Positions 8,436-52,644 are shown, numbered from the stretch's first letter. The stretch is 64,000 nucleotides of DNA from an uncultured Nitrospiraceae bacterium (GCA_964412455.1 CAYPOT010000009.1:5179-69178); one strand, 5' to 3'. The notes: generated from the sequence alone by a model not told the origin. Numbers and translations: made by a program.

Positions 8436-8451
8436 CCGCACCTTTTAATTT

Positions 8452-12907: not shown

Positions 12908-12939
12908 TTAGTTGCTCTGCTAAACGACAAAACACAAAA

Positions 12940-13782
12940 ATGACGCAATTTTTGAAAGACTTGCTGCGAAACTATGGGCTCTTGTACATAACGCTTACGC
13001 AGCTTTTGAGTGAGCGACCAGGAAACAAGTATGCTTCGCTGGACGAGTACTATCACAGTCTGGGCATGCAGACGCCTGATAACCCAATGTTTTACGTGCA
13101 TCCGAGCTCGGATGGCAAAACGCGCTACTTAGACGAGGGAGAGCACGATATTGAAGCGCGTGATGATGCGGGTAACAAGGTTGGAAAAGTAGTTGGCGTT
13201 TTGGAACTTCCGGAAGACGAATTCTATTTTTTTCAAGCATTCCGTCCTGGCATGTTCGATTTAGAAAAGGATCTTCCTTCATTTCTTTTTGAAATGGCAT
13301 TAATTTATGCTAATTCTCTATTTGAAAATTACATATCTAGCATTATTCGTCTCAGGTTTCAAAAACACCCAGAACTGATGGGTGTCAATAAACAAGTGAC
13401 TTATGGTCAAGTAATTAAGAGCAATTCGAAACAAGATGTCATCGAGCACCTGATTAATCGAGAAGTCCAACAATTGATGTATGAGCCTATCGGTGCAGTA
13501 TTGGAACGAATGCGAGCAAAATACGGATTTCGAGATCTAACCACGAAGTACGACGAGGAAATAATTTATCTGTCACTTATAAGAAATTGCGTTATGCATA
13601 ATTCTCGGAAGGTTGATTCTAAGCTTGCCACCAATAAACCTAAGCTAGTATTAGGCGAAAGATTGCCTGTTGAAAAGAGTCTCGTGGACACAGCAATTCA
13701 TACTTACCGAAAATTTTGCTATGAAGTTGATATCATGTTAGAAGCTATTGGATCACTCAAACAAACAAGTGAGCCTCTATGA
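12940..13782 (+). CDS. HEPN-motif protein (putative RNase effector)
   Basis: 280-aa ORF with an Rx4H motif, IRNCVMHN (13582-13599), in an alpha-helical C-terminal half. It is the last gene of the AT-rich operon. Confidence 0.5.
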   Translation: MTQFLKDLLRNYGLLYITLTQLLSERPGNKYASLDEYYHSLGMQTPDNPMFYVHPSSDGKTRYLDEGEHDIEARDDAGNKVGKVVGVLELPEDEFYFFQAFRPGMFDLEKDLPSFLFEMALIYANSLFENYISSIIRLRFQKHPELMGVNKQVTYGQVIKSNSKQDVIEHLINREVQQLMYEPIGAVLERMRAKYGFRDLTTKYDEEIIYLSLIRNCVMHNSRKVDSKLATNKPKLVLGERLPVEKSLVDTAIHTYRKFCYEVDIMLEAIGSLKQTSEPL

Positions 13783-13823
13783 GGAATGTCGGCATATAGA
13801 AATTGCATGCACAGGGGGTATTG

Positions 13824-15519: not shown

Positions 15520-15578
15520 TGCAGGGGAAACCCTATGTGGTTGCCCTGATCCGGGCGGCCACGCAGGGCCGCCCCTAC
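15520..15578. repeat. REP-like element family A, copy 2
   Basis: GCAGGGGAAACCCTATGTGGTTGCCCTGATCCGGGCGGCCACGCAGGGCCGCCCCTAC, immediately after the proS stop. Confidence 0.85.
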
Positions 15579-22720: not shown

Positions 22721-23254
22721 ATGACGATCAAGTCGAGGATCAGGACCGTGCCCGATTACCCCAAGAAAGGCATCATGTTCCGTGACATCACCACGCTCAT
22801 CAAGGACCCGGTTGGGTTCCGGCTGGTGATCGACACCATCACCCAGCGGTACATCACGGGCGACCATGACTTTAATGTCATCGTGGGCATCGAATCCCGG
22901 GGCTTCATCATCGGCGGCGCGCTTGCCTACACGCTCGGGAGGGGGTTCGTGCCCATCCGGAAGAAAGGGAAACTGCCCGGCGAGGTCGAGTTCCAGGAGT
23001 ATGAGCTCGAATACGGCACGGACCGCATCGAGATACACAAGGACGCGTTAAAGAAGGGCGACCGGGTGCTTCTGATCGACGACCTCCTCGCCACCGGCGG
23101 TACGGCCCTGGCCGCGGCGGCCCTGATAGAAAAGCTCGGCGGTACGGTCGTTGAAATGGCATTCATCGTGGACCTGCCGGACGTGGGCGGGAAGAAAAAA
23201 CTTCTGGACAAGGGCTACAGGGTCTTTGCGCTCACGGAGTTCGAAGGGGATTAA
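22721..23254 (+). CDS. apt: Adenine phosphoribosyltransferase
   Basis: Family sequence throughout, including the PRPP motif VLLIDDLLATGGT. Confidence 0.92.
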   Translation: MTIKSRIRTVPDYPKKGIMFRDITTLIKDPVGFRLVIDTITQRYITGDHDFNVIVGIESRGFIIGGALAYTLGRGFVPIRKKGKLPGEVEFQEYELEYGTDRIEIHKDALKKGDRVLLIDDLLATGGTALAAAALIEKLGGTVVEMAFIVDLPDVGGKKKLLDKGYRVFALTEFEGD

Positions 23255-23323
23255 GTGGCGTAGCAAAGGCAATTGGACGCGGATGTACGCGGATTTGCGC
23301 GGATTGAACGTCAAGATAACAAC

Positions 23324-23365
23324 AAAGCGGAGCAGGGTCATCATGCTCCGCTTTGTTGCGTTTTC
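23324..23365 (+). terminator. Rho-independent terminator after apt
   Basis: AAAGCGGAGC...GCTCCGCTTT hairpin followed by GTTGCGTTTTC. Confidence 0.7.
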
Positions 23366-23370
23366 ATTTG

Positions 23371-23406
23371 CCTCTCCCCTCGCGGGAGAGGGCAGGGTGA
23401 GGGGGC
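23371..23406. repeat. Family B repeat, short copy
   Basis: CCTCTCCCCTCGCGGGAGAGGGCAGGGTGAGGGGGC. Lies at the left edge of the second accessory region. Confidence 0.7.
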
Positions 23407-23430
23407 ATGGTTAGATAATCATACACTATA

Positions 23431-23459
23431 TTGACAGAATATCGTACACATGGTAATAT
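23431..23459 (+). promoter_or_regulatory. Sigma70-type promoter
   Basis: TTGACA (23431-23436), 17 nt, TAATAT (23454-23459), upstream of the XRE-Panacea gene. Confidence 0.55.
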
Positions 23460-23483
23460 GGTGCCACAGAGGGAGGGTTTACC

Positions 23484-24272
23484 ATGAGTGTGTCCAGTAA
23501 AATAGGGCTCCGGATCAAAGAGCTGCGGGAAAAGGCCGATATGAGCCAGGAGTCATTGGCGCAGAAGATGAAGATGTCCCGCCCTGCCATAACGCAGATC
23601 GAGAAAGGTACGAGAAAGGTCTCTGCCGAAGAACTGGTGAACTTTTCGCAAATGTTCCACGTACCTGTTGATGGCATTTTGAATCAGGGAAAAGAGCCGG
23701 AAGTCTTTCTTCAGGAGGAAAGGGCTGCAAAGGCGGCCAAGCCGCAGATGCGTATCAGCGTTCCGCAGAAGAACCTTCAAAAGTTCAAGGAGGTGCTGTT
23801 GTACATCCTGAACAAGGTGGGCGCAAAGGAGAACATCGGCGAGACCGTCGTCTACAAGCTGCTCTACTTCATAGATTTCGATTTCTACGAGAAATATGAG
23901 GACCAGCTGGTCGGCGCCACGTACATCAAGAACAAATATGGTCCTACACCGGTCGAGTTTGCTAAGATCGTCGAGAAGATGATCAAGGACGGTGAGATCG
24001 AGAAGGTCAAGAGCGAATACTTCAAGCTCCAGCAGACCAAGTACCTGCCCCGCCGGAAGCCGGACCTCACGAAGCTCCAGGCGACCGAGATCGAGGTGAT
24101 CGACGACGTGCTGAACCGGCTCTCGGAAATGAACGCCAACCAGATCAGCGCGTACTCGCACAGCGATGTTCCCTGGATGTCGACGAAGGACGGCGAAACC
24201 ATCGATTACGAATCGGTCTTTTACCGCACGCCGCCCTATTCCGTGCGGGCCTACACGGATGAGAACGGATGA
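23484..24272 (+). CDS. XRE-HTH / Panacea (DUF4065, SocA-like) domain antitoxin
   Basis: N-terminal LRIKELREKADMSQESLAQKMKMSRPAITQIEKG HTH. C-terminal VVYKLLYFIDFDFYEKYEDQLVGATYIKNKYGPTP resembles the DUF4065/Panacea core. Confidence 0.7.
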   Translation: MSVSSKIGLRIKELREKADMSQESLAQKMKMSRPAITQIEKGTRKVSAEELVNFSQMFHVPVDGILNQGKEPEVFLQEERAAKAAKPQMRISVPQKNLQKFKEVLLYILNKVGAKENIGETVVYKLLYFIDFDFYEKYEDQLVGATYIKNKYGPTPVEFAKIVEKMIKDGEIEKVKSEYFKLQQTKYLPRRKPDLTKLQATEIEVIDDVLNRLSEMNANQISAYSHSDVPWMSTKDGETIDYESVFYRTPPYSVRAYTDENG

Positions 24273-24784
24273 GCCGATCGTTCTACAGTGAATTCGACGG
24301 GACGCTGTTTGAAAAGATCACTCATGTCCCGGAGTTCGAGAAAGATCTAAAAAAGCTCTCCAAGCGATTCTCTTCGCTCGAAAAGGACCTGCAGACCTTC
24401 ATCAAGGTCGCGATGCATCTATTTCACAAGCAGAAGATCGACAGCAATGCGATCTTTCATATATCCGATCTCGGGATCAAGTCTCCGAATATATACAAGG
24501 CCAAGAAGTTTGCGTGCCGGGCGTTGAAGGGCAAAGGAGCGCAATCGGGAATCAGGGTTATTTATGCATATCATGAGGAAGCGGATTGGGTAGAGTTTGT
24601 CGAGATTTATTATAAGGGCGATAAGGAGAGCGAGGGCAGGGAGAGGATAGCTCGAATATATGGTAAACCTCGACAGGTAGGCGGACCGCTTGCGAGCCGC
24701 AAGGCCTTGAGAGAATCGCTCCGCGCCAAAGGAAAAGCGCCGTCCGAAGTCGTGATCGCATCGAGAAAACAGGAGAGGGATTAG
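24269..24784 (+). CDS. RelE/ParE-superfamily toxin (HigB-like)
   Basis: Overlaps the antitoxin stop by 4 nt. LKGKGAQSGIRVIYAYHEEADWVEFVEIYYKGDKE matches the K(S)GGxRVIY...IYxKxxKE toxin pattern. Confidence 0.65.
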   Translation: MSRSFYSEFDGTLFEKITHVPEFEKDLKKLSKRFSSLEKDLQTFIKVAMHLFHKQKIDSNAIFHISDLGIKSPNIYKAKKFACRALKGKGAQSGIRVIYAYHEEADWVEFVEIYYKGDKESEGRERIARIYGKPRQVGGPLASRKALRESLRAKGKAPSEVVIASRKQERD

Positions 24785-24839
24785 ATGCCCTCCCTATACG
24801 TTGACACGGCGTCGCGCAGAAATTATGCTGCCAACACCC

Positions 24840-24880
24840 TTGACAATGGCTTCAAGGCTGTTGTATTATAAATACAACAG
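24840..24880 (+). promoter_or_regulatory. Promoter with overlapping palindromic operator
   Basis: TTGACA (24840-24845), 18 nt, TATTAT (24864-24869). A 9-bp inverted repeat CTGTTGTAT-N5-ATACAACAG (24858-24880) overlaps the -10 element. Confidence 0.55.
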
Positions 24881-24901
24881 TAAGTAAGGGAGGTGCTCAC
24901 C

Positions 24902-25276
24902 ATGTCAACCAAAGCGACTTTCGGGGAATTCTTCAAACAAAAAAGGATCGAGCAGAAAAAGACCTTGCGGCAATTCTGTGCGGAGAACAAGCTGGACCCC
25001 GGCAATATCAGCAAGCTCGAACGGGGGCTCATGCAACCGCCGCAGGGGAAAGACAAACTCGAAGAGTATGCCAGGTATCTTACAATCAAAAAAGGAACCG
25101 ACGACTGGTATAAGTTCTTCGATCTGGCCGCTATTGAGGCCGGCCGGATACCTGAGGAGCTGCTGAGCGATGCTAAGATGGCCGCAAATCTGCCGATCCT
25201 GTTCCGGACCTTGCGGGGAAAGAAAATATCGGAAAAGAAACTCGACGAACTGGTGGAGATGATTCGCAAGGCATAG
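24902..25276 (+). CDS. XRE-family HTH transcriptional regulator
   Basis: FGEFFKQKRIEQKKTLRQFCAENKLDPGNISKLERG helix-turn-helix. Confidence 0.7.
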   Translation: MSTKATFGEFFKQKRIEQKKTLRQFCAENKLDPGNISKLERGLMQPPQGKDKLEEYARYLTIKKGTDDWYKFFDLAAIEAGRIPEELLSDAKMAANLPILFRTLRGKKISEKKLDELVEMIRKA

Positions 25277-25339
25277 CCTATCCATTTCTCAGTCTGTTTA
25301 ATTAGGTTTTCGAAAGAATGCGTATATCCAAGTAATGAC

Positions 25340-25504
25340 ATGGCAAACCAAGCGAAAAAGACAGAGCACTCAGGATCGAAGAAAGGTTGCGGCTCATACT
25401 GGGGACGAAAGAAGGACGCAAAGACAGAAAGCAACCGCAAGCGCCGCGAAGACGGCAAGAGATTGATTCGAGAGACAGCGAGAGTATATGAACCGAAGAA
25501 ATAA
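25340..25504 (+). CDS. Possible small basic protein (54 aa)
   Basis: ATG 25340 to TAA 25502-25504, absent from the ORF track because it is under 60 aa. MANQAKKTEHSGSKKGCGSYWGRKKDAK... No family recognised. Confidence 0.2.
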   Translation: MANQAKKTEHSGSKKGCGSYWGRKKDAKTESNRKRREDGKRLIRETARVYEPKK

Positions 25505-25751
25505 ATCCAGACCACAACGCACCGCTGATGCTCTTTGCCAGAAACACAAGGTCAGCGTCACGGGGAAATCCCATGACGTTGTACTCCATGCCGATACAGA
25601 AGACGGCGGCTTCTGGGTCGAGTGCCCCTCGCTTCCCGGCTGCGACTCGCAGGGCGACGCGGTAGAGGATGCGCTAAAGATGGTGAAGGACGCCATCAAG
25701 GGACATCTGGAGGTCGCGGCAGAGCGGAAGAAGAAGAGGGCGGCCGCGTAA
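25488..25751 (+). CDS. HicB-like antitoxin (UPF0150 fold)
   Basis: VVLHADTEDGGFWVECPSLPGCDSQGDAVEDALKMVKDAIKGHLE is the classic HicB N-terminal domain pattern. The true start may be internal. Confidence 0.7.
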   Translation: MNRRNKSRPQRTADALCQKHKVSVTGKSHDVVLHADTEDGGFWVECPSLPGCDSQGDAVEDALKMVKDAIKGHLEVAAERKKKRAAA

Positions 25752-26387
25752 ATGCCCTATATTTTCATGGACGAGTCAGGCGACCTTGGATTTGATTTCA
25801 CCAAGAAAGGGACTTCGCAATATTTTCTGATTACGTTCCTGTTCAGCAACAATAAGAGGGACATTGACAAATGCGTCAAAAAGGTCCATGCGGGCTTGCG
25901 CAAACGGTATAAGAGAGTTGGCGTACTGCATGCATATAAGGATGAACCGGTAACCAAAAAGCGATTACTTTCGCTACTTGCGGAGAAGGATTGCACTATC
26001 ATGGCAATCGTGCTGAACAAGAGAAAGGTCTACACAAACCTTCAGGATGAGAAGCCGGTCCTTTACAATTACGTGACCAATATCTTGCTCGACAGGATAT
26101 TCTCAAAAAAACTGCTGCGCGGCAACGAACCAATCGAGATCATCGCCTCGCGTAAGGACACGAGCAGGTTCCTGAATTTGAACTTCAAATCCTACCTGCA
26201 GTCGCAATTGGCCAAGAATCACAATGTGACGGTAAGCGTTACGATCAAGACCCCGGCGGAAGAGAAAGCACTTCAGGCGGTGGATTTCGTGAGCTGGGCG
26301 ATATTCAGGAAGTATGAGTCGAAGGACGAAGAGTACTACAGGATCATCAAAGGGCTGATCGTCGAAGAGAAACCGTTGTTCCCCTAG
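25752..26387 (+). CDS. DUF3800-family protein
   Basis: Starts MPYIFMDESGDLGF and ends ...ALQAVDFVSWAIFRKYE, the two DUF3800 hallmark blocks. Its ATG directly abuts the HicB stop codon. Confidence 0.7.
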   Translation: MPYIFMDESGDLGFDFTKKGTSQYFLITFLFSNNKRDIDKCVKKVHAGLRKRYKRVGVLHAYKDEPVTKKRLLSLLAEKDCTIMAIVLNKRKVYTNLQDEKPVLYNYVTNILLDRIFSKKLLRGNEPIEIIASRKDTSRFLNLNFKSYLQSQLAKNHNVTVSVTIKTPAEEKALQAVDFVSWAIFRKYESKDEEYYRIIKGLIVEEKPLFP

Positions 26388-26484
26388 AAACAACAAAGCC
26401 CCGTTCGCTAGTTTCGAGGCGCCCTGCGGTACCCCACGAACGAGGACTTACTTGTTGCTATTATGATAATGCAGGGGCGGAAGT

Positions 26485-26692
26485 ATGTCAAGGGTTTTGA
26501 GCAGTTTAATTCTCGGTCCGAGTGCAGCATAAAGGCTGGCGCGGCAGTCATGTGAAGCTGATGAAACCGGGTAATCCCGTCATTTTGTCGATCCCCCTGC
26601 ACAAGGGGAAACCGGTCAAGAAAGGCTTGCTGGTTGCTCAGGTCAAGAAGGCGGGGATGACGGTGGAGGAGTTCTTAAAATTGTACAAATAA
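26485..26692 (+). pseudogene. HicA-like toxin, apparently frameshifted
   Basis: Frame ending at 26692 reads FSVRVQHKGWRGSHVKLMKPGNPVILSIPLHKGKPVKKGLLVAQVKKAGMTVEEF (HicA GSHxxL core). The N-terminal ATG (26485) is in a different frame and stops at 26530-26532. Confidence 0.5.
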
Positions 26693-26734
26693 GCAATATG
26701 GTATCCAGTAAGATGTTGAAAATGAGTAGGCAAT

Positions 26735-27682
26735 TTGTTGATGACAGTTGGATTCTTACGAGCGAATGAAAATATGCCGATAGTAACTGATTCTAGACTG
26801 AACTCTGAAGCAGATATTAAATTCGAGACGTATCGCGGTTACCTCGATGCTGTCAGAAGGCACATATATCAAACATACGGATCTTGGAAGCACTTCGGAC
26901 GGACCTGCATTGATCAAACGCTACATATGCAAGGGATAGGTGTCTTTGATCAACCCTGGGTAGAACGGTTTCTCAAAATAGCATGGAATACTGAATTCAT
27001 TTTGTCTGACGGAGCCAAAGATGTAGAATTGGTCCGCATCAATAATCAGTGGTCACCGATTCAGGCGTATTATGCAATATATGCATGCGGGGAAGCCTTG
27101 GCCTATGTTCTTGACGGAAATAAAGCAGACGGCCATCAGAAAACTCTAACGAAGCTGACAGATTATTTTGAAAAAAACAGTCTCTCACCATGGAATCTAT
27201 CCTACGAGGGGCCACGAGGAAGGACTTGCCAGGACCACAAGCCTCATAATTTTTCTGCTGACATAAGAATACCGCATAACTTGCAGAGAAGCGACGTGAC
27301 ACCGCAGGAGTTGATTGCAAAGTGCCTTAAGGCAGAGCATGCCAACCGTGTTGATGATACATGGCAAAAAAGAAGGTGTCAGTTCAAATACAACTTCGAC
27401 CCGGGTCGGACCAGCCTATTGCACTTCATGTATAGACTCCGGATCAAATCCAACTACAAAGAGATTGATCTTTTCGTATCGCAGGCCCCGGCAGCTAAGA
27501 TCCTCAATTTCAACACATCTTTACAGTATATTTGTTTTTATACGCTTCTGTATATGGAGGTCGCGCTGGCCAGAAAATGTAAAAAGAGTTTTCTTCTTGC
27601 TCTGGGGGATAAGTATTTGACTGTGAATCCAAGAGCGCATAAATTAAAGCGTCGACTGGAATTCTATAATTCCCAGATATAA
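26735..27682 (+). CDS. Hypothetical protein (315 aa), first gene of the helicase cluster
   Basis: Long ORF in a lower-GC region, ending 40 nt upstream of the helicase gene. No family recognised. Confidence 0.55.
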   Translation: MLMTVGFLRANENMPIVTDSRLNSEADIKFETYRGYLDAVRRHIYQTYGSWKHFGRTCIDQTLHMQGIGVFDQPWVERFLKIAWNTEFILSDGAKDVELVRINNQWSPIQAYYAIYACGEALAYVLDGNKADGHQKTLTKLTDYFEKNSLSPWNLSYEGPRGRTCQDHKPHNFSADIRIPHNLQRSDVTPQELIAKCLKAEHANRVDDTWQKRRCQFKYNFDPGRTSLLHFMYRLRIKSNYKEIDLFVSQAPAAKILNFNTSLQYICFYTLLYMEVALARKCKKSFLLALGDKYLTVNPRAHKLKRRLEFYNSQI

Positions 27683-27722
27683 ATCTACCCGAGGTCAACG
27701 TCCTTCAAAGAGCACATTAACC

Positions 27723-30569
27723 ATGTCAAAGATGGACATCGCACGGAGCATTTCCGCATGTAACTGCTGGCAGGACTTCAAAGAAGCAATGCAGCCCTTG
27801 TCGAAGAAGGAAAAGGGTGACTGCTTTGAAGAACTGACCAAACAGTATTTGCTTATCGAGCCGAAGTATCAGACCCAGTTGCGTCACGTTTGGCGGCTCG
27901 AAGAAGTACCATCGAAGACCAGAAAGCATCTCAATCTCCCCGATTTAGATGAAGGGACCGACCTTGTAGCAGAAACAGTAGATGGAGGTTATTGGGCGAT
28001 CCAATCCAAGTATCGTGAAGACGAAACAACCTCCCTCACTCGCCGCGAACTCAGCACATTCACCGACCTGGCTTTCTCCATCTGTAAGAACATCGAACTT
28101 GGCCTGATATGTACCACCGCGGACCGCTTCAGCCACAAGCTGCGGCTTCATGGAGAGCGGCTCTCCTTCTGTGCCGGCGATGTCTGGTCAGCTCTTGATA
28201 AAGAGTTTTTCGGTCGTCTGCACGCTGTCCTTAAAGGCAGGGAAGTAAAGCTACGCCCCAAACATCCACGGGACCATCAAAAAAGCGCCATTCAGAACGC
28301 CTTTGATCATTTCATCCAGAATGGCAATGACCGCGGCAAGCTGATCATGCCATGCGGAACTGGGAAAAGTCTGGCCGCATACTGGATAGCCGAAAAACTG
28401 AACGCCCATTCGATCCTCATTGCGGTCCCGAGCCTTTCCCTTATCAAACAGACTCTGGAGGTCTGGGCGCGGGAATCGGTTGCTAATGGTCGGGCCATTC
28501 ACTGGATGGCTGTCTGCAGCGATGAAACCGTCGCGAAAAGCGAGAAAAAGGATATTGCAGTGCTGACCCAGGATCTTGGCGTCCTTGTGCATACAGACCC
28601 GGTGGAGATAGCCGACTGGCTCAGGAAAAAGGAGAAGGGAACGACGGTCGTATTCAGCACGTACCAAAGCGGAAAGGCCATAGCCGAAGCGGCCAAGATA
28701 GCGAAAGTCACCTTTGACATCGCGATCCTCGATGAAGCGCATAAAACAGTAGGCAAAAAGCAGGGATTGTTCAGTTATCTTCTGCATGATGAGAATATCC
28801 CGATCCGGAAGCGGATATTCATGACTGCGACTGAAAGGCGCTACCGGGGGCAGAGCGACGACATTGTCAGTATGGATGACATATCCCTGTACGGAGAGAC
28901 CTTTGAGCTGCTGAGTTTTAAGAGAGCGCTCGAATACAAAGAACCTATCCTGAGCGATTATAAGATCGTGACCGTAGCCGTTTCGCGACAAGAGATAGCC
29001 GACATGGTTAAGCGCAATGTCTTCGTAAGGCCGGACAAGGGTGAATGGGACGAGGATGTTGAAGCGGAATCGCTTGCGGCTCTGGTTGCCCTGCGAAAGG
29101 CCATGAACTCATATCCCATCCGTCACGCAATCTCCTACCACAGCAGTATTGCCCGCGCAAAGATGTTTAAAACAAATCAAGAGCAGTTCTCAGATACATT
29201 TTCTGAATATAACCGTATAAACACCTACCATGTTTCCGGAAAAACGCCCACTGCAGTCCGTGCCCGAGAGATCAGAGATTTTGCAAGCGCAGACCGCGCA
29301 CTTATAACGAATGCTCGTTGTATGGTCGAGGGAGTGGATATTCCTAATGTTGACTGTGTTCTTTTTGCCGATCCGAAGAACAGTATAGTGGATATTGTGC
29401 AAGCGGTTGGGCGTGCATTGAGACCGGCAATAGGAAAAGACTATGGCTATGTGATTGTTCCTGTCCTTCTGGAAAGAAACGACGGTACGGATGTATCAAT
29501 GCCCCAGAGCGCATACGCTACGATCATCACAGTCCTGCGAGCGCTGGCCGAGAATGACGAGAGGATTATAGAATATTTCAGAGGGATTTCGCAGGGAGCA
29601 CGGCGCGAGGGCAAGGAAAATGTATTTGAGATCAACATTCCAGAAAGTTTGCATATCAACCTGCCGGATTTCGTCCAATCTGTAGAACTTCAAGTCTGGT
29701 CTCGCATTGCACGTCTGGCATGGCGGCCGTTTGAAGAGGCCCGCGCTTTCGCCCGGTCGTTGGCACTAAGAAACCAAGATGATTGGAAATCCTATTATAA
29801 AGGCTACTTGTCACGCATGTATAAAAAGCCAGTGGATATTCCTGCAGCTCCCAATGAAGTGTATAAGTACAATGGCTGGAAGAGTTGGGTAGACTGGTTA
29901 TGGATAGAAGGCCTCGCGCCAAGTGATTATGCATGGCGGTCGTTTGAAGATGCCCGTGCTTTTGTACATTCATTGGGGCTCAGAGGTATAAATGACTGGA
30001 GGCTTTATTGTACGGATAAGCTGCCAGATAAAGGTAGTAAACCAGCGGACATACACGCAGACCCATATAAAGTATATAAAGACAAGGGCTGGAAGAATTG
30101 GGGGGATTGGCTAGGGCTTGGCGCGGGAACTATTGAACCCAGAAAACAATTATATCGGTCGTTTGAAGAAGCTCGTTCTTTTGTGCGATCGTTGGGGCTC
30201 TCTGGCCAAACGGAATGGACTCTCTACTGTAAAGGTCAATTGCCCGGCAGGGATAAGAAGCCGGATGATATACACTCTAATCCCTATAATACTTATAATA
30301 ACATATGCTGGAAGAGCTGGGATGACTGGCTTGGAACGGAAACCATAGCACCACAAAATCGAGTATTTCGGCTTTTTGAGGAAGCCCGCACTTTTGCGCG
30401 TTCGTTGGGGCTTCCAAGCGAAAAAGAATGGCGTCTCTACTGTAAGGGTGAGTTACCTGGTAAGGGAAAGAAACCTGATGACATACCGTCTGCTCCATGG
30501 TTAACTTATAAGGACGATGGCTGGAAGAGTTGGGGTGACTGGCTTGGAACTAGACGCGTTAAGAAGTAA
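27723..30569 (+). CDS. Nuclease-helicase fusion: N-terminal restriction-endonuclease-like domain, SF2 DEAH helicase, four C-terminal tandem repeats
   Basis: N-terminus GTDLVAETVDGGYWAIQSKY (PD-(D/E)xK-like). Helicase motifs MPCGTGKS (I), LDEAHK (II), MTATE (III) and QAVGRALR (VI). C-terminal W-rich repeats. Confidence 0.8.
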   Translation: MSKMDIARSISACNCWQDFKEAMQPLSKKEKGDCFEELTKQYLLIEPKYQTQLRHVWRLEEVPSKTRKHLNLPDLDEGTDLVAETVDGGYWAIQSKYREDETTSLTRRELSTFTDLAFSICKNIELGLICTTADRFSHKLRLHGERLSFCAGDVWSALDKEFFGRLHAVLKGREVKLRPKHPRDHQKSAIQNAFDHFIQNGNDRGKLIMPCGTGKSLAAYWIAEKLNAHSILIAVPSLSLIKQTLEVWARESVANGRAIHWMAVCSDETVAKSEKKDIAVLTQDLGVLVHTDPVEIADWLRKKEKGTTVVFSTYQSGKAIAEAAKIAKVTFDIAILDEAHKTVGKKQGLFSYLLHDENIPIRKRIFMTATERRYRGQSDDIVSMDDISLYGETFELLSFKRALEYKEPILSDYKIVTVAVSRQEIADMVKRNVFVRPDKGEWDEDVEAESLAALVALRKAMNSYPIRHAISYHSSIARAKMFKTNQEQFSDTFSEYNRINTYHVSGKTPTAVRAREIRDFASADRALITNARCMVEGVDIPNVDCVLFADPKNSIVDIVQAVGRALRPAIGKDYGYVIVPVLLERNDGTDVSMPQSAYATIITVLRALAENDERIIEYFRGISQGARREGKENVFEINIPESLHINLPDFVQSVELQVWSRIARLAWRPFEEARAFARSLALRNQDDWKSYYKGYLSRMYKKPVDIPAAPNEVYKYNGWKSWVDWLWIEGLAPSDYAWRSFEDARAFVHSLGLRGINDWRLYCTDKLPDKGSKPADIHADPYKVYKDKGWKNWGDWLGLGAGTIEPRKQLYRSFEEARSFVRSLGLSGQTEWTLYCKGQLPGRDKKPDDIHSNPYNTYNNICWKSWDDWLGTETIAPQNRVFRLFEEARTFARSLGLPSEKEWRLYCKGELPGKGKKPDDIPSAPWLTYKDDGWKSWGDWLGTRRVKK
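29721..30566 (+). repeat. Four tandem ~70-codon coding repeats at the helicase C-terminus
   Basis: The unit W/F-R-x-FEEARxFxRSLGL-x5-W-x-YCKG-LPGKGKKPDDI-x3-P-x3-YK-x2-GWKSWGDWLG recurs four times. Confidence 0.85.
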
Positions 30570-30607
30570 TAGTAATATCAATAGACGAAAGGTTAAACAG
30601 ATACGAA

Positions 30608-31408
30608 ATGAAAATCGAAGGTAATGGGTTTTTGACCACTCTTTTGCCAGACATATCGCAGACGGTTCCCGGCGTCAATAAGGCTTTATTTTGCTTACTG
30701 CAAGATGTCATCAATTATGCAGAGAGCCTAAAAGAATCATTGCAGGTCGCCAAACAGGAAACAGATCAAGAAAAGCAGAAAATTATCGCGACAGTTACTT
30801 ACATTCGACTTTTAGAAGTCGTTGAAGCGGCGTTCATCCTTTCCGCTTATGGAATTAGAGAAGAGTTGCAGTCGCTATTTCGCATATTCTTAGACGCTTA
30901 TTTTGTGCATGCCAACTGCTGTAGCAGCCCAGAATTTATCCCTGCCTATATTCTTAGTGACGAACAGTCACGTCTTAAAATGCTTAATGTGGCGACGAAG
31001 TATGATAGCGAGATGTTCAAAGCGACAAAAGAATATGCAACAGCCGAATTGAAAAACCAACTTGAAAACAAGATACGCGAGGAAAAAATTGAAGCATTCA
31101 ACTCGTACCTCTATGCGAAAAATGTTAATTGCGAACAAATATACGATTCTCTATACAGGCTGATGAGCGCCTCAGTGCATACAACTCCCAGATGTTTAAG
31201 CAATTATATAGAAACTGACGAACATGGGGTCATATTGCAAGTCTTGCATGGCTCTAGGCCGGAAGACACCAACCACGCATTGTTTGATATGTCGTGGTTT
31301 TTCTTAAAGGCTATACGCGGGATCTGTGAATTGTTCCAGCTCCCCATGGGGACGTTAGATTGTTTTGACAAACGGATAAAGGAATATGAAACCGAAAGAA
31401 AAGATTGA
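30608..31408 (+). CDS. Hypothetical protein (266 aa), third gene of the helicase cluster
   Basis: Helical protein 38 nt downstream of the helicase. Contains YRLMSASVHTTP (an Rx6H spacing), possibly DUF5677-like from memory. Confidence 0.5.
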   Translation: MKIEGNGFLTTLLPDISQTVPGVNKALFCLLQDVINYAESLKESLQVAKQETDQEKQKIIATVTYIRLLEVVEAAFILSAYGIREELQSLFRIFLDAYFVHANCCSSPEFIPAYILSDEQSRLKMLNVATKYDSEMFKATKEYATAELKNQLENKIREEKIEAFNSYLYAKNVNCEQIYDSLYRLMSASVHTTPRCLSNYIETDEHGVILQVLHGSRPEDTNHALFDMSWFFLKAIRGICELFQLPMGTLDCFDKRIKEYETERKD

Positions 31409-31578
31409 GAATGAGAGTCGAATATTGAATGTAATTTCGTTCATGGTCAGCCGAAAATTAGGCGCGAACGGATCCTGTATTTATTGATTCATGATGCGGA
31501 CTGAAAGCACTTATACTGAACTAAAAATAAGCGGCAGGCCATCTGGCCTGCCTTTGTCGTCTTCCGCATGCGCATCGC

Positions 31579-31827
31579 TCAATGCACCGAGCACGATATG
31601 CAAAGGTCGTAGGAGCGCACGAGCATCTGGGCGAGGAGCTCGATGTCCCGGTCCTTTTTCCCTTCCCGGGCATACTGCTCGGCAAGCGCCATCAGGTCGT
31701 GCTGAATATTGGCATGGTTCTGGCTCGTGGGGATCACGCAGTCGCTCTTGACGATCCCGCCTTCCTTGTCGAACTCGTAGCAATGATATAAGATCCCCCG
31801 GAGTATGCCTTGATTCTCGTATTGCAA
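31579..31827 (-). pseudogene. Diverged duplicate of the [NiFe]-hydrogenase large-subunit 3' end
   Basis: ...GILYHCYEFDKEGGIVKSDCVIPTSQNHANIQHDLMALAEQYAREGKKDRDIELLAQMLVRSYDLCISCSVH parallels the C-terminus of 32775..34049. It has DLC instead of DPC and includes a copy of the terminator hairpin. Confidence 0.9.
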
Positions 31828-31943
31828 ATTTGCCGCTAATCGGCTAAATTTCTGCCATGTTCTGAATCTACGTGTGTCATTTCAACTCTGGAAACTGAAA
31901 TTATTGATAGATGCGTAAAAATGAAATGGGGTGAATCGACGTC

Positions 31944-32276
31944 ATGATCAACCGATCAATTCTGGTAGTCAGGGCGAAAGAGCCGTTCGTGCAATGGATC
32001 AACTCCCTTCCCGATCCTGCTGGAGTCTCCCGGAAGCAGGTCGATCTCGATAATACAGCCTATCTTCTGCCGGAATACGCGTATGACGAAGAAAAAGAGG
32101 AGCTTCTCGCTCAGTTCTTCGATCTGATCTTTCAGGAACAATTGAGCGGCTGGTGGACTGATGAGAGTGGCTGGCCGCAGAAGCGGGACATTGCCATGTT
32201 CAACAAGTGGTTCGAAGTAGATTTTCATTCGGCAGTGCTCGATCTTGTTGATACGCCGCTGGAAGAGGACGAATAG
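31944..32276 (+). CDS. Hypothetical protein (110 aa)
   Basis: ORF between the duplicated hydrogenase 3' ends. No family recognised. Confidence 0.45.
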   Translation: MINRSILVVRAKEPFVQWINSLPDPAGVSRKQVDLDNTAYLLPEYAYDEEKEELLAQFFDLIFQEQLSGWWTDESGWPQKRDIAMFNKWFEVDFHSAVLDLVDTPLEEDE

Positions 32277-32315
32277 CGGTTAGTCAGTCCCGCTTGCTAC
32301 TGAGAGAGGTGAGTT

Positions 32316-32690
32316 ATGAAAGTGAAAAAGATCAACATAGGCATCAAAGATCTAGCGGAAAGCTTGAAGGATTTTGCCGCGACGTGGAAAAAGTCGGAAT
32401 CCGGCAAGAAGACGAGGAAAGAGGAGGGCATTTACTTTGACTCCATCGATTCGATGCGGTCTGTGTTGACGAACAACCGGCTGCTTATCCTGAAAACGAT
32501 CCGGGACCGCAATCCGGGCTCCGTCTACGAGTTGGCAAAAATACTGGAACGGGACCTAAAAAACGTTAACCAGGACCTGAAGCTCCTAGCCGACATCGGC
32601 CTGGTTACTCTGGTGAAGACGGACGCCGATAAGAAGCGTGTTGTGCCCCATGTTGATTACGGTAAGATCATGCTTGAAATACCGGTGTAA
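32316..32690 (+). CDS. Winged-helix DNA-binding protein (MarR/ArsR-like)
   Basis: LLILKTIRDRNPGSVYELAKILERDLKNVNQDLKLLADIGLV is a wHTH pattern. Confidence 0.55.
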   Translation: MKVKKINIGIKDLAESLKDFAATWKKSESGKKTRKEEGIYFDSIDSMRSVLTNNRLLILKTIRDRNPGSVYELAKILERDLKNVNQDLKLLADIGLVTLVKTDADKKRVVPHVDYGKIMLEIPV

Positions 32691-32720
32691 TGACTTTCAT
32701 GGAAGCACTCATACTGAACT

Positions 32721-32750
32721 AAAAAAGAGGCAGGCCATGTGGCCTGCCTC
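32721..32750 (-). terminator. Rho-independent terminator of the hydrogenase operon
   Basis: GAGGCAGGCC-ATGT-GGCCTGCCTC hairpin, followed on the minus strand by a T-run (A6 on the plus strand). Confidence 0.7.
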
Positions 32751-32774
32751 TTCTGTTCATGTGATGTTTGACGC

Positions 32775-34049
32775 TCAATGCACAGAACATGATATGCAGG
32801 GGTCGTAGGACCTGACAAGCATCTGGGCGAGGAGTTCGATGTCCCTGTCCTTCTTGCCTTCCCGGGCATACTGCTCCGCCAGCGCCATCAGATCGTGCTG
32901 GATGTTGGCGTGGTTCTGGCTCGTGGGGATCACGCAGTCGCTTTTGACGATCCTGCCTTCCTTGTCGAACTCGTAGTAATGATATAAGATGCCCCGCGGT
33001 ACTTCTACCGCTCCGACGCCGATCCCTTCCCGCGGCACCACCTTCTGTCGTGGCTCCTGCCATGCCCCATCCAACATTCCGTTGATCAGGTCGATCGAGT
33101 CCATCACCACATGCACGCATTCCACTAACTGGGCGACATTGTTCATGAAGGGATTGTGGTTCACCGGCTTGAGCCCGAAGCTTAGGGAGAGCTCTTTCGC
33201 GGCAGGATGCAGGAAGGCGAAGTTGTTGTTCAGGCGGGCGAGCGCGCCGACTGCCAGCGACGACCGCGAGAGCTTGCTCCACTTGGACGTGGACTGTCCG
33301 ACCATATACTCGTTCGTCATCAACCGGTACTCGTGCTCTTTCCTGACCACGCCGTCCGTCGAGACCAGGTCTCCGCCGATGAAAGGATAACTCCCCTTGC
33401 CCTTGAGCGAAACGAATTCGGTCTCCCGCTTGAAGTCAGGAACAACAAATTGCCGGAACAGGTCCGCGGTGAGGGTGAGGTCATCCACGACATCCTGCAG
33501 GCGGTACTTGAACTTCACCAGTTCATTTTTTTCCGGCAGCATGGTGAACCCGCCGATCACGGTCCGCGTGGGATGCATCCTCCGGCCGCCGACGCAGTCG
33601 CACATATCGTTCGCGAGCAGCTTGATCTTGGCCGCGCGTTTTATTACATCGGGATGGGAATCGATGAGCGGGAACACGCTTCCGACGTTCAGGAAGTCCG
33701 GGGCAGCCAGGAAATACAGGTGCAGGATATGGCTCTGGAGCGTTTCCATGTGCTTCAGCAGGAGCCGCAGTTTCCCCGTTTGCTCCGTGGGAACGATGCC
33801 GAAGGCGTTCTCGACCGCCCGGATGCTGGCCAGCGTATGGCCGATGGAGCAGATGCCGCAGATCCTGCCGCAGATCCAGGGAGCGTTCTCCCATTTCTTC
33901 CCGACCAGCATCGCCTCGAAGAAGCGCGGCGTCTCCACGACCTCCCAGGTCGCGTCTTCGACCTTTCCGTCTTTGATGGAGATCTTGATGTTGCCGTGGC
34001 CTTCCACCCGGGTGAGGTGGCGTATGTCGATGGACTGCGATAGCTTCAT
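32775..34049 (-). CDS. Cytosolic [NiFe]-hydrogenase large (alpha) subunit, group 3
   Basis: N-terminal RICGICSIGH and C-terminal DPCISCSVH nickel-binding motifs. Confidence 0.9.
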   Translation of the reverse strand: MKLSQSIDIRHLTRVEGHGNIKISIKDGKVEDATWEVVETPRFFEAMLVGKKWENAPWICGRICGICSIGHTLASIRAVENAFGIVPTEQTGKLRLLLKHMETLQSHILHLYFLAAPDFLNVGSVFPLIDSHPDVIKRAAKIKLLANDMCDCVGGRRMHPTRTVIGGFTMLPEKNELVKFKYRLQDVVDDLTLTADLFRQFVVPDFKRETEFVSLKGKGSYPFIGGDLVSTDGVVRKEHEYRLMTNEYMVGQSTSKWSKLSRSSLAVGALARLNNNFAFLHPAAKELSLSFGLKPVNHNPFMNNVAQLVECVHVVMDSIDLINGMLDGAWQEPRQKVVPREGIGVGAVEVPRGILYHYYEFDKEGRIVKSDCVIPTSQNHANIQHDLMALAEQYAREGKKDRDIELLAQMLVRSYDPCISCSVH

Positions 34050-34148
34050 TGCTGCCTCTCGGTTGTACGTATATCGTCAGATCTATTTACTGAATATCAT
34101 GCATTGCGGATTTCGGATTCCGGAATGAAGACCGTTCATACCGTTGTC

Positions 34149-34213
34149 GTAGGGGCAACCCTATGTGGTTGCCCTCATTCGGCGTTCGGGCGGCCACGCA
34201 GGGCCGCCCCTAC
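34149..34213. repeat. REP-like element family A, copy 3
   Basis: GTAGGGGCAACCCTATGTGGTTGCCC...GGGCGGCCACGCAGGGCCGCCCCTAC. Overlaps the last ~13 codons of the small-subunit ORF. Confidence 0.85.
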
Positions 34214-35017
34214 TGTCTTCCGCATTTCCGAAGCGTGCCCCGCGAACCCGCCGAAGCACTCCAGCCGGTCGAGCATGGTCTCCTCGGAGAACCCGTACTT
34301 CTTCATGATCTCTTGCATCTGCTCCACATTGGCGTCCACGGTCGGGCCGCGGCAGCCCCAGCAGCCGAAGCGGCTGTTCGGGCACCAGGAGTCGCACCCG
34401 CCGCGGGTGATGGGGCCGAGACAGGGTTCGCCCAGGTCGAAGAGGCAGGTATTCTCGTTCGCCTTGCATTCCATGCAGACGGGATACTTGGGCTGGACGA
34501 TGGACTTGCCGAGCACTACGTTCGTGACGATCTTCTCGACCTCTTCCTTCTTCACCGGGCAGCCGAAGATCTGGAGATCCACTTTCACGAAGTCCTCGAG
34601 CGGCCTTGCGGTGTCGTTGGTCTCGATGGGGTGGGCGCCGTACACCTCTTTTTTCACCCAGGCGGGGTCCTTGAAGCGGTTCTTGAGCTGGTTCACGCCG
34701 CCGAAGCAGGCACAGGACCCGAAGGCTACGAGTACCTTGGCCCTTTCCCGTATTGTCTTCAGCCGCTCGATCTCGTCGGCGCGGGTGACGCTCCCCTCCA
34801 CAAAGGCGATCGCGTAGTCGTCTTTCTCCTCGGTCATGGCCTCACGGAATGTCCGCACGTCGACGAGGGAAAGAAAGTCGAGAAGCGTGGCTTCGTTGTT
34901 CACGAGCTGGAGCTGGCAGCCCTCGCAGGACGAGAGCTCGAAGAAAGCGACCTTCGGACGGGGGATGGGAATGCCGAGATAGGTCCGTTGTGTCGGTTCG
35001 CTCTTATTCACGATCAT
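34175..35017 (-). CDS. [NiFe]-hydrogenase small (delta) subunit
   Basis: FELSSCEGCQ proximal-cluster motif and further Cys clusters (FGSCACFGG; CMECK; GCWGC). The C-terminal tail is encoded by repeat A. Confidence 0.8.
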   Translation of the reverse strand: MIVNKSEPTQRTYLGIPIPRPKVAFFELSSCEGCQLQLVNNEATLLDFLSLVDVRTFREAMTEEKDDYAIAFVEGSVTRADEIERLKTIRERAKVLVAFGSCACFGGVNQLKNRFKDPAWVKKEVYGAHPIETNDTARPLEDFVKVDLQIFGCPVKKEEVEKIVTNVVLGKSIVQPKYPVCMECKANENTCLFDLGEPCLGPITRGGCDSWCPNSRFGCWGCRGPTVDANVEQMQEIMKKYGFSEETMLDRLECFGGFAGHASEMRKTVGAALRGRPNAE

Positions 35018-35334: not shown

Positions 35335-36240
35335 TCAAATGGCCTCTTTCAGGTTCAACACGCTCCAGTAATCGAACACCGGACCGGACAGACAGGTATA
35401 GGTCGAACCCACGTTGCAGCGGCAGCACTTGCCCATGCCGCAGTGCATTCTCCGTTCGAGGGAAACGAACATCTTTTGCATGGGGATGCCGAGCTCAGCG
35501 AGCAACGTGCAGACCGATTTGAACATGATCGGCGGGCCGCAGACGATGGCGAACGTATTGTCGATGAACGAGGCGGAGCGGTCCTTGCTGATGTCCCCGA
35601 GGACCCTGGTGGTGAACCCGACCGGGCCGGTCCACGCCGCGTCCGCCTTCTCGACAATGACATGAAGGTCGATGTCGTCTTTTTTCCACATCTCATACTG
35701 GTATTTGAACAGGAGTTTCGCCGGGTTCTTGGTGCCGTACACAATGTCCACGTGGTCGAACATGCTCCGGTGTTCCTGCACATGGGCAATGGGCGAACGC
35801 AATGGCACCAGTCCGAGCCCCCCGGCGATCAGCAGGATGTTCCCGCCGTGCATGCGCTCCATGGGGAAGCTGGTGCCGAAGGGGCCGCGGATGCCCACGC
35901 GCGTTCCCCGCTGGGCGCGCGCGAGGACACCGGTGAGATTTCCCACCACGCGGATGCAGAGCTCGATGTCCTCGTGGTTGCTCGACGAGGACGAGATGGA
36001 GAACGGCGCCTCGCCCACCCCGGGGATCTCGAGCATGATGAACTGGCCCGGACTGAAGGAAAAGTGCTTCCGGTCCTCGGCGTCCATGATCCGGACCCGG
36101 TAGAGGTTTTCCTGCTCCGTCAGGGCGTATACGCTGGTGATCTCGGCCTTGTAGGTGAACTCGAAGCTGTCGAGGTCGCCCTTCCGGTGGAACTTGTGGC
36201 GGTGCGGGGTCACGCTATGGAACGCGAGACGGTGGTCCAT
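35335..36240 (-). CDS. Hydrogenase gamma subunit (FAD/NAD(P)-binding, 2Fe-2S)
   Basis: Ferredoxin-reductase-like fold ([20 protein letters not shown]; [10 protein letters not shown]) and C-terminal CGMGKCCRC. Confidence 0.75.
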
Positions 36241-36241: not shown

Positions 36242-37285
36242 TCACTGCTCCTCTCCCCGGACGCTTGCGATCACCTCGGGGACCGTGATGCCGGCAAGAC
36301 AGGCCTCGCCGCAGCGTCCGCAGCCCACGCAGAGGGACTCTTCATAGGCCTCGACGAACCCGCGGTGCTTGTGATAATAGCGGTACTTGAGCCGGGAACT
36401 GCGCTCCGGCCGGAAATTGTGGCCCCCGGCCACCTCGGCGAAGTCCACGACGTTGCAGGAATAGAGCGTTTTGGTCTTCCGCGCCGTTTTCAGGTCCGAG
36501 GCCACGGTCTCTTCGACGCCGTAGCAATAGCAGGTGGGGCAGACGTTGGCGCAGGTCCCGCAGCCCAGGCACTTGTCGCCCCACTGCTTCCAGACCGGGG
36601 ACTGGAACTCCATGTCCAGGATCTTGGTGAGGTCCGTGGTGTCCACGTGCGTCGTGAACAGCTTGTTCTTCTCCGCCACGGTCCTCATGTACTGCAGGTG
36701 GTCCGCTTCTTTCGGCGTTTCCGTTTTCAGGTCCTTGCTGATCGCGTAGGCCTCGGCTGACAGGATCTCGATGAAATATTTGTCGCCCATATCAGTGAGG
36801 AAGAGGTCGAACCCGTGGAGCACGGTGTCGGCGCCCATGGAACGGCAGAAGCAGAAGGGCTGGGGCCGGCAGTCCATGCCGATGATGAACATGTTCTTCC
36901 GCTTGGCGGCATAGTAGGGCATGGGATAGACGGAGCCCATCAGCACCTTGTCGAGCTTGTTGAGGGCGTTGATGTCGCAGGCATGAAGACCGAAGAACAC
37001 ATAGGGCCGGTCGATATGATAGTCTCTGTCCTTGGTCCAGTCCCTGCCGGAGATCTTGAAGGTCGCGAGGTCCTCGCGGAAGGGGAGGAAGTACCGTTTC
37101 GCGGGAAGCCTGGTCGCGGTGTAGCCCAGGTCGAGTTTCCGGTAGTCCGCGACCTGCTCGAAGGCGTAAAGGGGCGCGCCGTTCCGGTCCACGCCTGTCC
37201 GCACCGGCCCGACGACCGGGTTCTTTTCGGCGAGCAGGTCAAAGAGGGCTTTCATCTCTGTTTTTTCTGCAATGCGGAACAACAT
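36242..37285 (-). CDS. Hydrogenase beta subunit (4Fe-4S dicluster protein)
   Basis: [16 protein letters not shown] and [11 protein letters not shown] ferredoxin motifs. Start set at the internal ATG ([15 protein letters not shown]). The beta-gamma-delta-alpha gene order matches sulfhydrogenase-type operons. Confidence 0.72.
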
Positions 37286-37411
37286 GGCCGGTGTCCTTGT
37301 GTCGCTGTGACGATGGAGATGGTCCGGAATGACTGTATTGACCTGACCCGGACAAGCCGGAACCAAATATGCCACGAAGTCGCTAAGGCACAAAGAATGC
37401 AAAATCTATTA

Positions 37412-52532: not shown

Positions 52533-52586
52533 GTCGATTGCGGATTGCGGAGTGCGGAACGAGAACAGCCGATCCTGCGGTAAACC

Positions 52587-52644
52587 GTAGGGGCAACCCC
52601 ATGTGGTTGCCCCCGGGCGGGCGGCCACGCAGGACCGCCCCTAC
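52587..52644. repeat. REP-like element family A, copy 4
   Basis: GTAGGGGCAACCCCATGTGGTTGCCCCCGGGCGGGCGGCCACGCAGGACCGCCCCTAC. Confidence 0.85.

Follow-up and report, generated by a model that had tools for sequence, protein, structure and literature searches.

A displaced 3′ end of a [NiFe]-hydrogenase gene in an uncultured Nitrospiraceae bacterium: a probable scar of homology-anchored gene acquisition

At Rhs (rearrangement hotspot), CDI (contact-dependent inhibition), and Vibrio type VI secretion system (T6SS) loci, displaced 3′ stubs and the orphaned genes downstream of them have been attributed to homology-facilitated illegitimate recombination (PMC5361080). A comparable arrangement is found in the stretch analyzed here, 64,000 nucleotides (nt) from an uncultured Nitrospiraceae bacterium (GCA_964412455.1 CAYPOT010000009.1:5179-69178; hereafter the window), in which the 3′ end of hydA, the large-subunit gene of a group-3b-like [NiFe]-hydrogenase, occurs twice and brackets two small genes. 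C-terminal displacement at the Rhs, CDI, and Vibrio cholerae T6SS effector-immunity loci appears to be its closest described analogue. In both settings the incoming DNA would share an anchor with a resident gene and supply it with a new 3′ end and further genes downstream, while the earlier 3′ end is kept as a distal stub in the same orientation with its own downstream genes, without a recombinase; the events can be layered (compare the gcpE and proS stubs below). The hydA locus differs in that a metabolic gene of housekeeping type has had its conserved end displaced, the two ends encoding nearly the same peptide with nothing gained, and in that the variable payload lies wholly downstream. The recombination route has been deduced in both settings and demonstrated in neither.

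Other known arrangements resemble the locus in part. Prophage e14 or phage 21 in icd of Escherichia coli, and ICESt1/ICESt3 in the 3′ end of fda, code for an integrase and possess a defined att core. They too supply a substitute 3′ end with mostly synonymous differences and leave the original end as a stub at the far end of the insert; there, however, the substitute end belongs to the element, whereas here no integrase is found and the end does not co-diverge with the cargo. Campbell-type integration likewise gives a direct duplication of a homologous segment flanking heterologous DNA, but it needs a circle formed by an illegitimate end-join (here, at the junction J1), and neither a circle nor a replicon or excised form was observed. 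Between core genes, integration hotspots, defence islands, and "minimal mobile elements" are exchanged by homologous recombination in the flanks. The interval between apt and hydA is similar in having empty, small, and large alleles with toxin-antitoxin and restriction-like genes and no mobility genes, but flank-to-flank replacement leaves no stubs, and those found here would record rarer, additive events.

We regard the hydA repeat not as a working device but as a scar left when genes were added, with homology as the anchor, at a hotspot of gene exchange; a probability of about 0.6 is attached to this reading. The features concerned, with the compared loci designated by L numbers, are as follows:

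31502-31808, minus strand: copy A, the displaced hydA 3′ stub, in frame and without internal stops, made up of codons ~351-424 and the stop (31579-31803), a core hairpin (31533-31552), and a tail (31502-31527)
31808/31809: junction J1, joining hydA nt ~1046-1051 (codon 350/351) to DNA upstream of ORF110
31944-32276, plus strand: open reading frame ORF110, a small acidic Trp-rich protein and first gene of the putative incoming cargo
32305/32306: deletion joint, where 3.1 kb (UPF0158, the SWIM protein, and most of TumE) is missing relative to L084
32316-32690, plus strand: ORF124, a winged helix-turn-helix protein (PF25212 HVO_A0114, 76.5 bits against a cut-off of 27.6, E 1.4e-21)
32700-33004, minus strand: copy B, the working hydA 3′ end and extended bidirectional terminator (core hairpin 32729-32748, stop 32775-32777)
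32775-34049, minus strand: hydA, 424 aa, group-3b-like [NiFe]-hydrogenase large subunit (PF00374), anchor gene of the hotspot

MAFFT alignment places the full extent of the repeat at 31502-31808 versus 32700-33004. Blastn of the window against itself recovers 31502-31800 versus 32700-32996 (86% over 300 nt, E 4e-94) and no third copy in the window. A repeat search reveals a longest ungapped block of 230 nt (31576-31805 versus 32772-33001, 89%) and shorter blocks at 31525-31553/32721-32749 and 31502-31527/32700-32725. The two copies share the same orientation at an offset of 1196-1198 nt, and each consists of the last ~74 codons, the stop, and a terminator hairpin, GGCAGGCC-N4-GGCCTGCC. This is congruent with the initial annotation, which had described a diverged direct repeat of about 300 bp made of the hydrogenase 3′ end plus terminator, a DPC to DLC change, which is present in copy A, and only a 110-aa reading frame and a winged helix-turn-helix protein between the copies; these are ORF110 and ORF124.

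The minus-strand translation of copy A ends in LRGILYHCYEFDKEGGIVKSDCVIPTSQNHANIQHDLMALAEQYAREGKKDRDIELLAQMLVRSYDLCISCSVH and a stop, and that of copy B in PRGILYHYYEFDKEGRIVKSDCVIPTSQ...SYDPCISCSVH and a stop. The copies differ at ~25-26 nt in 225 coding positions (19 at third codon positions) and in 23 codons, 18 synonymously and 3-5 non-synonymously. Comparison with seven orthologs reveals two non-synonymous changes private to the stub, R to G and P to L, the latter in the DPCxxC nickel-ligand motif, whereas for HCY (stub) versus HYY (intact) the private change sits in the intact gene; this last difference would represent a change in the intact copy and not decay of the stub. The longest identical words, of 32, 22, and 20 nt, are all internal to the repeat, and its J1-side edge differs between copies. 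With a longest perfect match of only 32 nt and an identity of ~89%, the direct repeats could still permit RecA-mediated loss of the cassette. Homology to hydA stops at J1. The same joint is present, in diverged form (88-91% identical to the window), in ENA ERZ27247852 (L084), JGI 3300027900 (L105), and Logan SRR5272222 (L086), and is presumably illegitimate in origin. In annotations, the apparent 82-aa "gene" at 31579-31827 should be treated as a pseudogene stub.

Both copies hold the native hydA terminator of the clade, which L007 also has behind its hydA, as does L004 in diverged form. In copy B an extended stem (-35.5 kcal/mol, z -5.9) is followed by UUUUUU; the 26-nt tail of the repeat forms the 3′ arm of this stem, so that the repeat simply ends on its outer side where the hydA transcription unit ends. 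Copy A retains only the 8-bp core hairpin, its extended stem being degraded (z -1.8). A terminator scan scores the hairpin of copy A as a terminator on both strands and does not list copy B, the stem of which probably takes up part of the T run.

The site was surveyed in 80 GTDB hydA loci, and ORF110 in 80 JGI loci. In the window it comprises a block of ~9.4 kb between apt and hydA with a GC content of 41-52%, versus ~60% in the flanks, and includes on the apt side:

22721-23254, plus strand: apt, adenine phosphoribosyltransferase-type (Pfam Pribosyltran), the conserved left flank of the variable region
23255-31501: older accessory cargo, namely a helix-turn-helix (HTH)+Panacea antitoxin with orf171, HicAB, DUF3800, orf313, an Mrr-nuclease/helicase, and DUF5677

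Two relatives (L006 and L011) have an empty site, with hydA and apt convergent and separated by 97-102 bp and a hairpin. Three others hold different cargo: a VapBC-like pair in L009; a 231-aa unknown gene and an HTH pair, then a Panacea pair, in L004; and a kinase-like gene with two unknowns, again followed by a Panacea pair, in L008. No DNA-level hydA stub is found in the cargo of L004, L008, or L009, and at the protein level ORF110, ORF124, and a second hydA piece are absent from all 80 GTDB loci. Across both surveys the insert occurs only in the window lineage and in that of L084, L105, and L086. Searches with Pfam, NCBIfam, and PADLOC find no integrase, transposase, or recombinase domain in the reading frames of 23.3-33 kb or in the L084 cargo, and the precomputed Pfam matches of the contig are likewise free of recombinases. 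In this Nitrospirota clade the two genes face each other as neighbours, and the short apt-hydA spacer is a hotspot where accessory toxin-antitoxin and defence-type genes come and go. This comparison of the apt/hydrogenase junction, with its two empty and three differently occupied sites, had been proposed in the initial annotation, and it agrees with the view given there that the repeat marks the hydA-side boundary of the accessory region.

Over the last 225 nt, copies A and B are 88.9% identical to each other, and each is 90% identical to the species-level relatives L004 and L005. Since the distance between A and B is that between species and is mostly synonymous, the copies evolved in the working genes of separate lineages, as had been surmised from the sequence for one of them. 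An attempt to name the native copy failed: A and B are equidistant from L004 and L005, and the informative sites have no clean switch point. Synonymous divergence (dS), calculated by the Nei-Gojobori method for the window versus L084 unless stated otherwise, is as follows (dN, non-synonymous divergence):

ORF110: dS 0.22
TumA (ORF124): dS 0.20
hydA core: dS 0.63
copy B versus copy B: dS 0.81
stub versus stub: dS 0.51, dN/dS 0.10
copy A versus copy B inside the window: dS 0.64

Pairs of hydA 3′ copies span a dS range of 0.49-0.91, and 121/135 positions of the J1-ORF110 spacer match between the window and L084. Divergence of the cargo (dS ~0.2) is therefore roughly one third of that of hydA or of either copy (0.5-0.9). 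Being less diverged than the core genes, it was shared between the lineages after those had separated, and moved horizontally; since the hydA copies diverge more than the cargo, the hydA pieces are not the fixed ends of a travelling element. Taken together, the four copies of the two lineages have star-like, mosaic relations, and the sole derived change common to all stubs is C to T in codon 351, at the joint. The earlier proposal of integration through a carried hydrogenase 3′ homology holds only in part: recombination within hydA homology is the most economical explanation, but the dS values do not agree with the homology having been "carried" with the cargo.

A larger form of the cargo is found in L084, a contig from a sister sample with a hydA core 85.5% identical to that of the window. 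Its order is HigB, HigA, terminator, stub, J1, ORF110, UPF0158, SWIM, TumE, TumA, and intact hydA, where the SWIM-domain protein (664 aa) matches the candidate-defence model PDC-S62. Window 31502-32305 aligns with L084 1550-2352, and 32306-33679 with 5452-6786. The deletion joint reads ACTGAGA/GAGGTGAG, shows 2-3 nt of microhomology, and retains the last ~10 nt of tumE with the TumA ribosome-binding site. Because L084 has an intact five-gene block, the two-gene content of the window is a 3.1-kb deletion derivative. The "two-gene cassette" of the initial annotation is consequently the remnant of that block and not a unit in itself; elsewhere ORF110 is not paired with TumA, and the suggested search for the cassette at other loci did not reveal it as a mobile unit. 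On the left side of the stub, the window is unrelated to L084 and L105 (DUF5677 versus HigBA), and homology starts exactly at the outer edge of the repeat. On its copy-B side L084 has no hairpin and carries a 24-nt fragment, 23/24 identical to the start of HigA in L105. We infer from this an originally longer duplication, reaching from HigA to hydA nt ~1049 (at least ~800 bp), which each lineage then shortened by deletions of its own; the window sequence TAATGACTTTC/ATGGAAGC would fit a deletion between two ATGGAA words.

The TumE-TumA toxin-antitoxin family, which targets translation, has been validated by experiment (PMC10584680). ORF124 belongs to the HVO_A0114 family of winged helix-turn-helix proteins that characterizes TumA, and in L084 the orthologous gene overlaps a TumE gene on its upstream side (PF20126, 51.5 bits). 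The window differs in that the toxin gene has been deleted: apart from its last ~10 nt, no TumE (DUF6516) gene is present upstream of ORF124, and the sole TumE of the window (5656-6051) is unrelated to the toxin of L084. ORF124 is accordingly best annotated as a predicted orphan TumA antitoxin that has lost its TumE gene. A split toxin-antitoxin system, made of ORF124 and the TumE at 5656-6051, was considered and is unsupported (BLASTP E = 13 between the two TumE proteins).

ORF110 has 82 homologs, all of ~110 aa and unnamed, and no match in Pfam, NCBIfam, or PADLOC. Its AlphaFold model, a confident one (pLDDT 85), gave nothing below E 0.1 in a Foldseek search of the PDB, and no viral relatives were found. 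A dN/dS of 0.18 versus L084 indicates purifying selection. Elsewhere its homologs lie beside HhH-GPD and radical-SAM genes (L087), in a defence island with MazE-PIN (L089-L092), or beside UPF0158 (L098, L100, L101). ORF110 and TumA were considered as a conserved pair, an idea rejected on the finding that no ORF110 homolog outside this lineage has a TumA neighbour. A distant homolog (35% identity, E 1e-15) is encoded on the Burkholderia gladioli plasmid NZ_CP045575.1 (95507-95869; L182), directly after a PAAR protein and a 538-aa hypothetical protein, the usual place of the immunity gene for a secreted toxin; this is a lead only. Neisseria gonorrhoeae carries two copies of an ORF110 homolog per genome.

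The following course of events would account for the locus. DNA from a related lineage, containing hydA (at least its 3′ part), the terminator, ORF110, UPF0158, SWIM, TumE, TumA, and probably then HigA, would have entered the cell; one end would have recombined with the resident hydA by homology, and the other would have been joined illegitimately inside that gene at ~nt 1049, producing J1. Alternatively, the fragment may have circularized at J1 and integrated by a single crossover. The one-sided and the circular (Campbell-type) routes look alike in sequence and cannot be separated by it. By either route hydA would stay intact while gaining the incoming 3′ end and terminator (copy B), next to which the new cargo would lie; the previous 3′ end and the terminator belonging to it (copy A) would have been pushed outward along with the older cargo. 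Later the window lineage would have lost 3.1 kb, leaving ORF110 and an orphan TumA, as well as the HigA copy beside copy B, while homologous exchange among lineages would have reshuffled the hydA pieces and passed the cargo on. The stub being homologous to the hydA end of a recipient, the unit of stub, cargo, and gene could also spread by double crossover, which would explain stubs that look local and recently functional despite a shared J1. In accordance with displacement as described at Rhs-type loci, the stub lies distal to the new module in the same orientation and is still joined to resident downstream sequence, the new and old ends come from different lineages of the same gene, and stubs recur at a second hotspot in the same genome. 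We view the repeat as a real but fairly ordinary scar of horizontal transfer, which leaves the understanding of hydrogenases or of gene transfer unchanged.

Several observations weigh against this course of events. The searches revealed no donor lineage whose sequence ahead of ORF110 continues beyond J1 into anything but a hydA stub, the illegitimate step thus being deduced, and no donor arrangement with the cargo downstream of hydA and no stub. A simple version predicts one hydA copy as little diverged as the cargo; neither is, and extra recombination events must therefore be assumed. The stubs sharing J1 differ mainly synonymously, which calls for later overwriting of most of the stub by functional alleles. 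Lastly, an independent operon deletion in another Nitrospirota lineage breaks within ~6 nt of J1, a possible site preference for which the proposed course offers no explanation. In that deletion (L096, 4943-5177; also L097; compare L022, 7224 and 11048), 3.8 kb comprising hydBGD and most of hydA has been lost, and a decaying hydA stub of 75 codons persists ahead of the native tRNA flank. The breakpoint falls in the same GC-rich near-palindrome as J1, GTRCC(N)CG(N)GG; the closeness stems partly from selection, as the match was picked for starting with LRGILY. L096 and L097 were rejected as a third insertion, since their "cargo" matches, at 91% identity, the native flank that precedes hydB in L022. 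A recurrent breakpoint as a sign of site-specificity was likewise rejected: HydA tails of 75-82 aa starting with (M/V)EVPRGILYH are frameshifted hydA pieces. In three error-prone long-read assemblies (L093, L094, and L095), frameshifts break up every gene of the operon, hydA included, and leave last pieces of 77-82 aa that start with VEVPRGILYH. Short HydA "tail proteins" in public catalogues are thus mostly fragments of frameshifted long-read genes.

The window belongs to a metagenomic MEGAHIT contig assembled at k=141 (ENA ERZ27247837, k141_2157167), which raises the question of whether strain variants of the hydA 3′ end were stitched together in tandem. The Logan k=31 contig L003 (run ERR3094292) is 100% identical to window 31717-32940, J1 and cassette included, and starts and stops within the 32-nt word common to both copies; other Logan contigs enter the stub from the DUF5677 side and end in that word as well, and the k=31 graph also allows an excised-plus-circle form. 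An assembler, however, needs a shared k-mer to switch path; A and B have no word longer than 32 nt in common, and the k=141 path crosses that word with copy-specific variants on both sides. J1 moreover fuses hydA codon ~351 to unrelated DNA, a joint which assemblers cannot make, and it recurs with a different assembler on the same sample series and, diverged, in three other datasets, two long contigs sharing the neighbourhood. The duplication is real, well supported, and no product of chance, an artefact of the kind that the initial annotation had named as its refutation being scarcely credible. Contigs with the exact DUF5677 protein all run into the stub, and no pre-insertion variant of the window lineage was found among them. 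That the stub is kept for a function, as an expressed HydA C-terminal peptide of ~80 aa or as a needed terminator, also seems highly improbable. Both known stubs are open for all 74 codons, the stub-stub dN/dS is low, and the core hairpin is intact with a terminator score on both strands; the low ratio fits a recent origin from functional alleles equally well, however, and each stub has private, non-conservative changes in and around DPCxxCxxH, namely P to L in that of the window and both S to Y and S to F in those of L084 and L105. The sole upstream start is a TTG made by the joint, and the stubs have no derived change in common except the one at the joint.

A decayed site-specific integrative element at the 3′ part of hydA, comparable to those at icd and fda or to a cis-mobilizable remnant, with its integrase lost or acting from elsewhere, copy A as attR and copy B as attL, would show the observed architecture of an intact gene with a substitute 3′ end, cargo, and displaced original end. 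The identity of J1 in two diverged lineages, the nearby breakpoint of L096, and the horizontal mobility of the cargo also speak for it, yet we consider it unlikely. An integrase model of the e14/icd type fails on three of the four points that can be tested. No recombinase is encoded in the 10-kb region, in the L084 cargo, or in the block with the gcpE and proS stubs; the 3′ copy beside the cargo has diverged out of step with it (dS 0.81 versus 0.20); and among the 80 GTDB and 80 JGI loci the insert is confined to two close lineages. In addition, the homology takes in the non-coding terminator of the clade's own hydA locus, the longest identical core, the 32-nt word, lies in the middle of the repeat and not at its edge, L096 is an operon deletion with joint microhomology and not an insertion, and the cargo lacks viral relatives. 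A related but very doubtful idea is that ORF110-UPF0158-SWIM-TumE-TumA is an integrase-free mobile module which targets GTRCC(N)CG(N)GG at hydA codon ~350 and brings a replacement 3′ end; mobility would then come from an uncharacterized cargo protein or a host factor, and the near-coincidence of J1 and the L096 joint would mark a true recombination or cleavage hotspot. Tandem duplication in place, from upstream of ORF110 to hydA nt ~1049, with the intact copy or the stub later replaced by alleles from relatives and with turnover of the cargo left of the stub, requires just one illegitimate joint and yields a direct repeat. The HigA-start fragment of L084 shows that the segment was once longer, and the star-like, mosaic copies show that allelic replacement occurs here. 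Such a duplication would double the cargo, however, and no trace of ORF110...TumA is found left of the stub in either lineage; in L084 the HigA in that position is preceded by HigB and not TumA, and the mostly synonymous divergence of 11% would call for several extra replacements. It is accordingly a rather improbable alternative to homology-anchored acquisition.

The same signature of a remnant plus an intact gene had been claimed at proS; it is seen there and also at gcpE. This second hotspot (4165-15518) extends from gcpE to proS, with stubs of both genes inside:

4165-5262: gcpE
5656-6051: TumE-family toxin gene, 131 aa, followed directly by the proS stub and by no TumA gene
~6070-6168: proS 5′ stub, from a diverged allele
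6461-6931: PIN toxin, part of the second-hotspot cargo
~6949-7019: gcpE 3′ stub, likewise from a diverged allele, in frame and with a different C-terminus
13803-15518: proS

The cargo comprises TumE, the PIN toxin, HD, a methylase, and others, with no integrase in the gcpE-proS block. The first ~45 nt of the proS stub differ mostly synonymously from proS, after which 52/53 nt are identical; this step in identity suggests a crossover point. The order of the pieces is consistent with repeated additions next to gcpE. The hydA locus offers a clean and well-documented worked example, in an uncultured Nitrospirota, of accessory toxin-antitoxin and defence-type genes piling up beside a conserved metabolic operon without a mobility gene. 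Leftovers of the flanking genes give the order of acquisition, with the newest cargo by the anchor gene and the older outward, and stubs could be mined across genomes to compare the frequency of additive acquisition with that of replacement.

Upstream on the plus strand, apt is preceded by mdh and the fumarase alpha and beta genes. An HTH+SocA/Panacea gene and an overlapping 171-aa partner adjoin apt in the window (23484-24784), L004 (10088-11268), and L008 (14075-15219), at 82-87% identity. The pair is missing in L006, L009, and L011 and is the only part of the older cargo common to L004 and L008; it would represent an older, vertically shared layer of the hotspot. Within the same cargo, the Mrr-nuclease/helicase gene (948 aa, 27723-30569) encodes a C-terminus of four tandem repeats of 213-219 nt (71-73 aa), 61-73% identical (29718-30550); the protein of the Logan variant L180 has 945 aa.

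On the other side of hydA lie the remaining genes of the four-gene hydrogenase operon:

34175-35017, minus strand: hydD, Oxidored_q6
35335-36240, minus strand: hydG, FAD/NAD-binding and DHODB Fe-S
36242-37402, minus strand: hydB, Fer4_22

The synteny of hydD, hydG, and hydB is kept in all relatives compared. By Pfam the operon has the four genes of a group 3b (sulfhydrogenase-type) enzyme, with an Fe-S beta, an FAD/NAD gamma, a small delta, and a large alpha subunit. HydA ends in DPCISCSVH, at the His of DPCxxCxxH. Its top NCBIfam match is sulfhyd_HydA (NF040832, 1.8e-81), at 274 bits versus a cut-off of 880 and thus below it, which suggests a protein related to the archaeal enzyme and not its equivalog. 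Orthologs of hydA at 72-92% identity are present in 80 Nitrospirota and Desulfobulbia genomes, and judged by them the window derives from a Nitrospirota bacterium of the Thermodesulfovibrionia type. No tRNA gene is found in the 64-kb window.

The gap between hydD and hydA holds one (34148-34213) of four copies of a ~60-nt intergenic element, 74-95% identical, the others being at 1283-1342, 15523-15578, and 52583-52644. With its two GC-rich hairpins, GGGGCAACCC..GGTTGCCC and GGGCGGCC..GGCCGCCC, the element resembles repetitive extragenic palindromic (REP) sequences or miniature inverted-repeat transposable elements (MITE). A 100-nt repeat at 2502-2601 and 54888-54988 (95% identical) contains the hairpin CCCTCTCCCCTGGAGGGAGAGGG followed by a T run and is probably a dispersed terminator-like element. 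The segments 17728-18155 and 50404-50831 are 69% identical over 430 nt; they correspond to a 614-aa reading frame (16654-18498) and one of 562 aa (49486-51174), which are probably paralogs.

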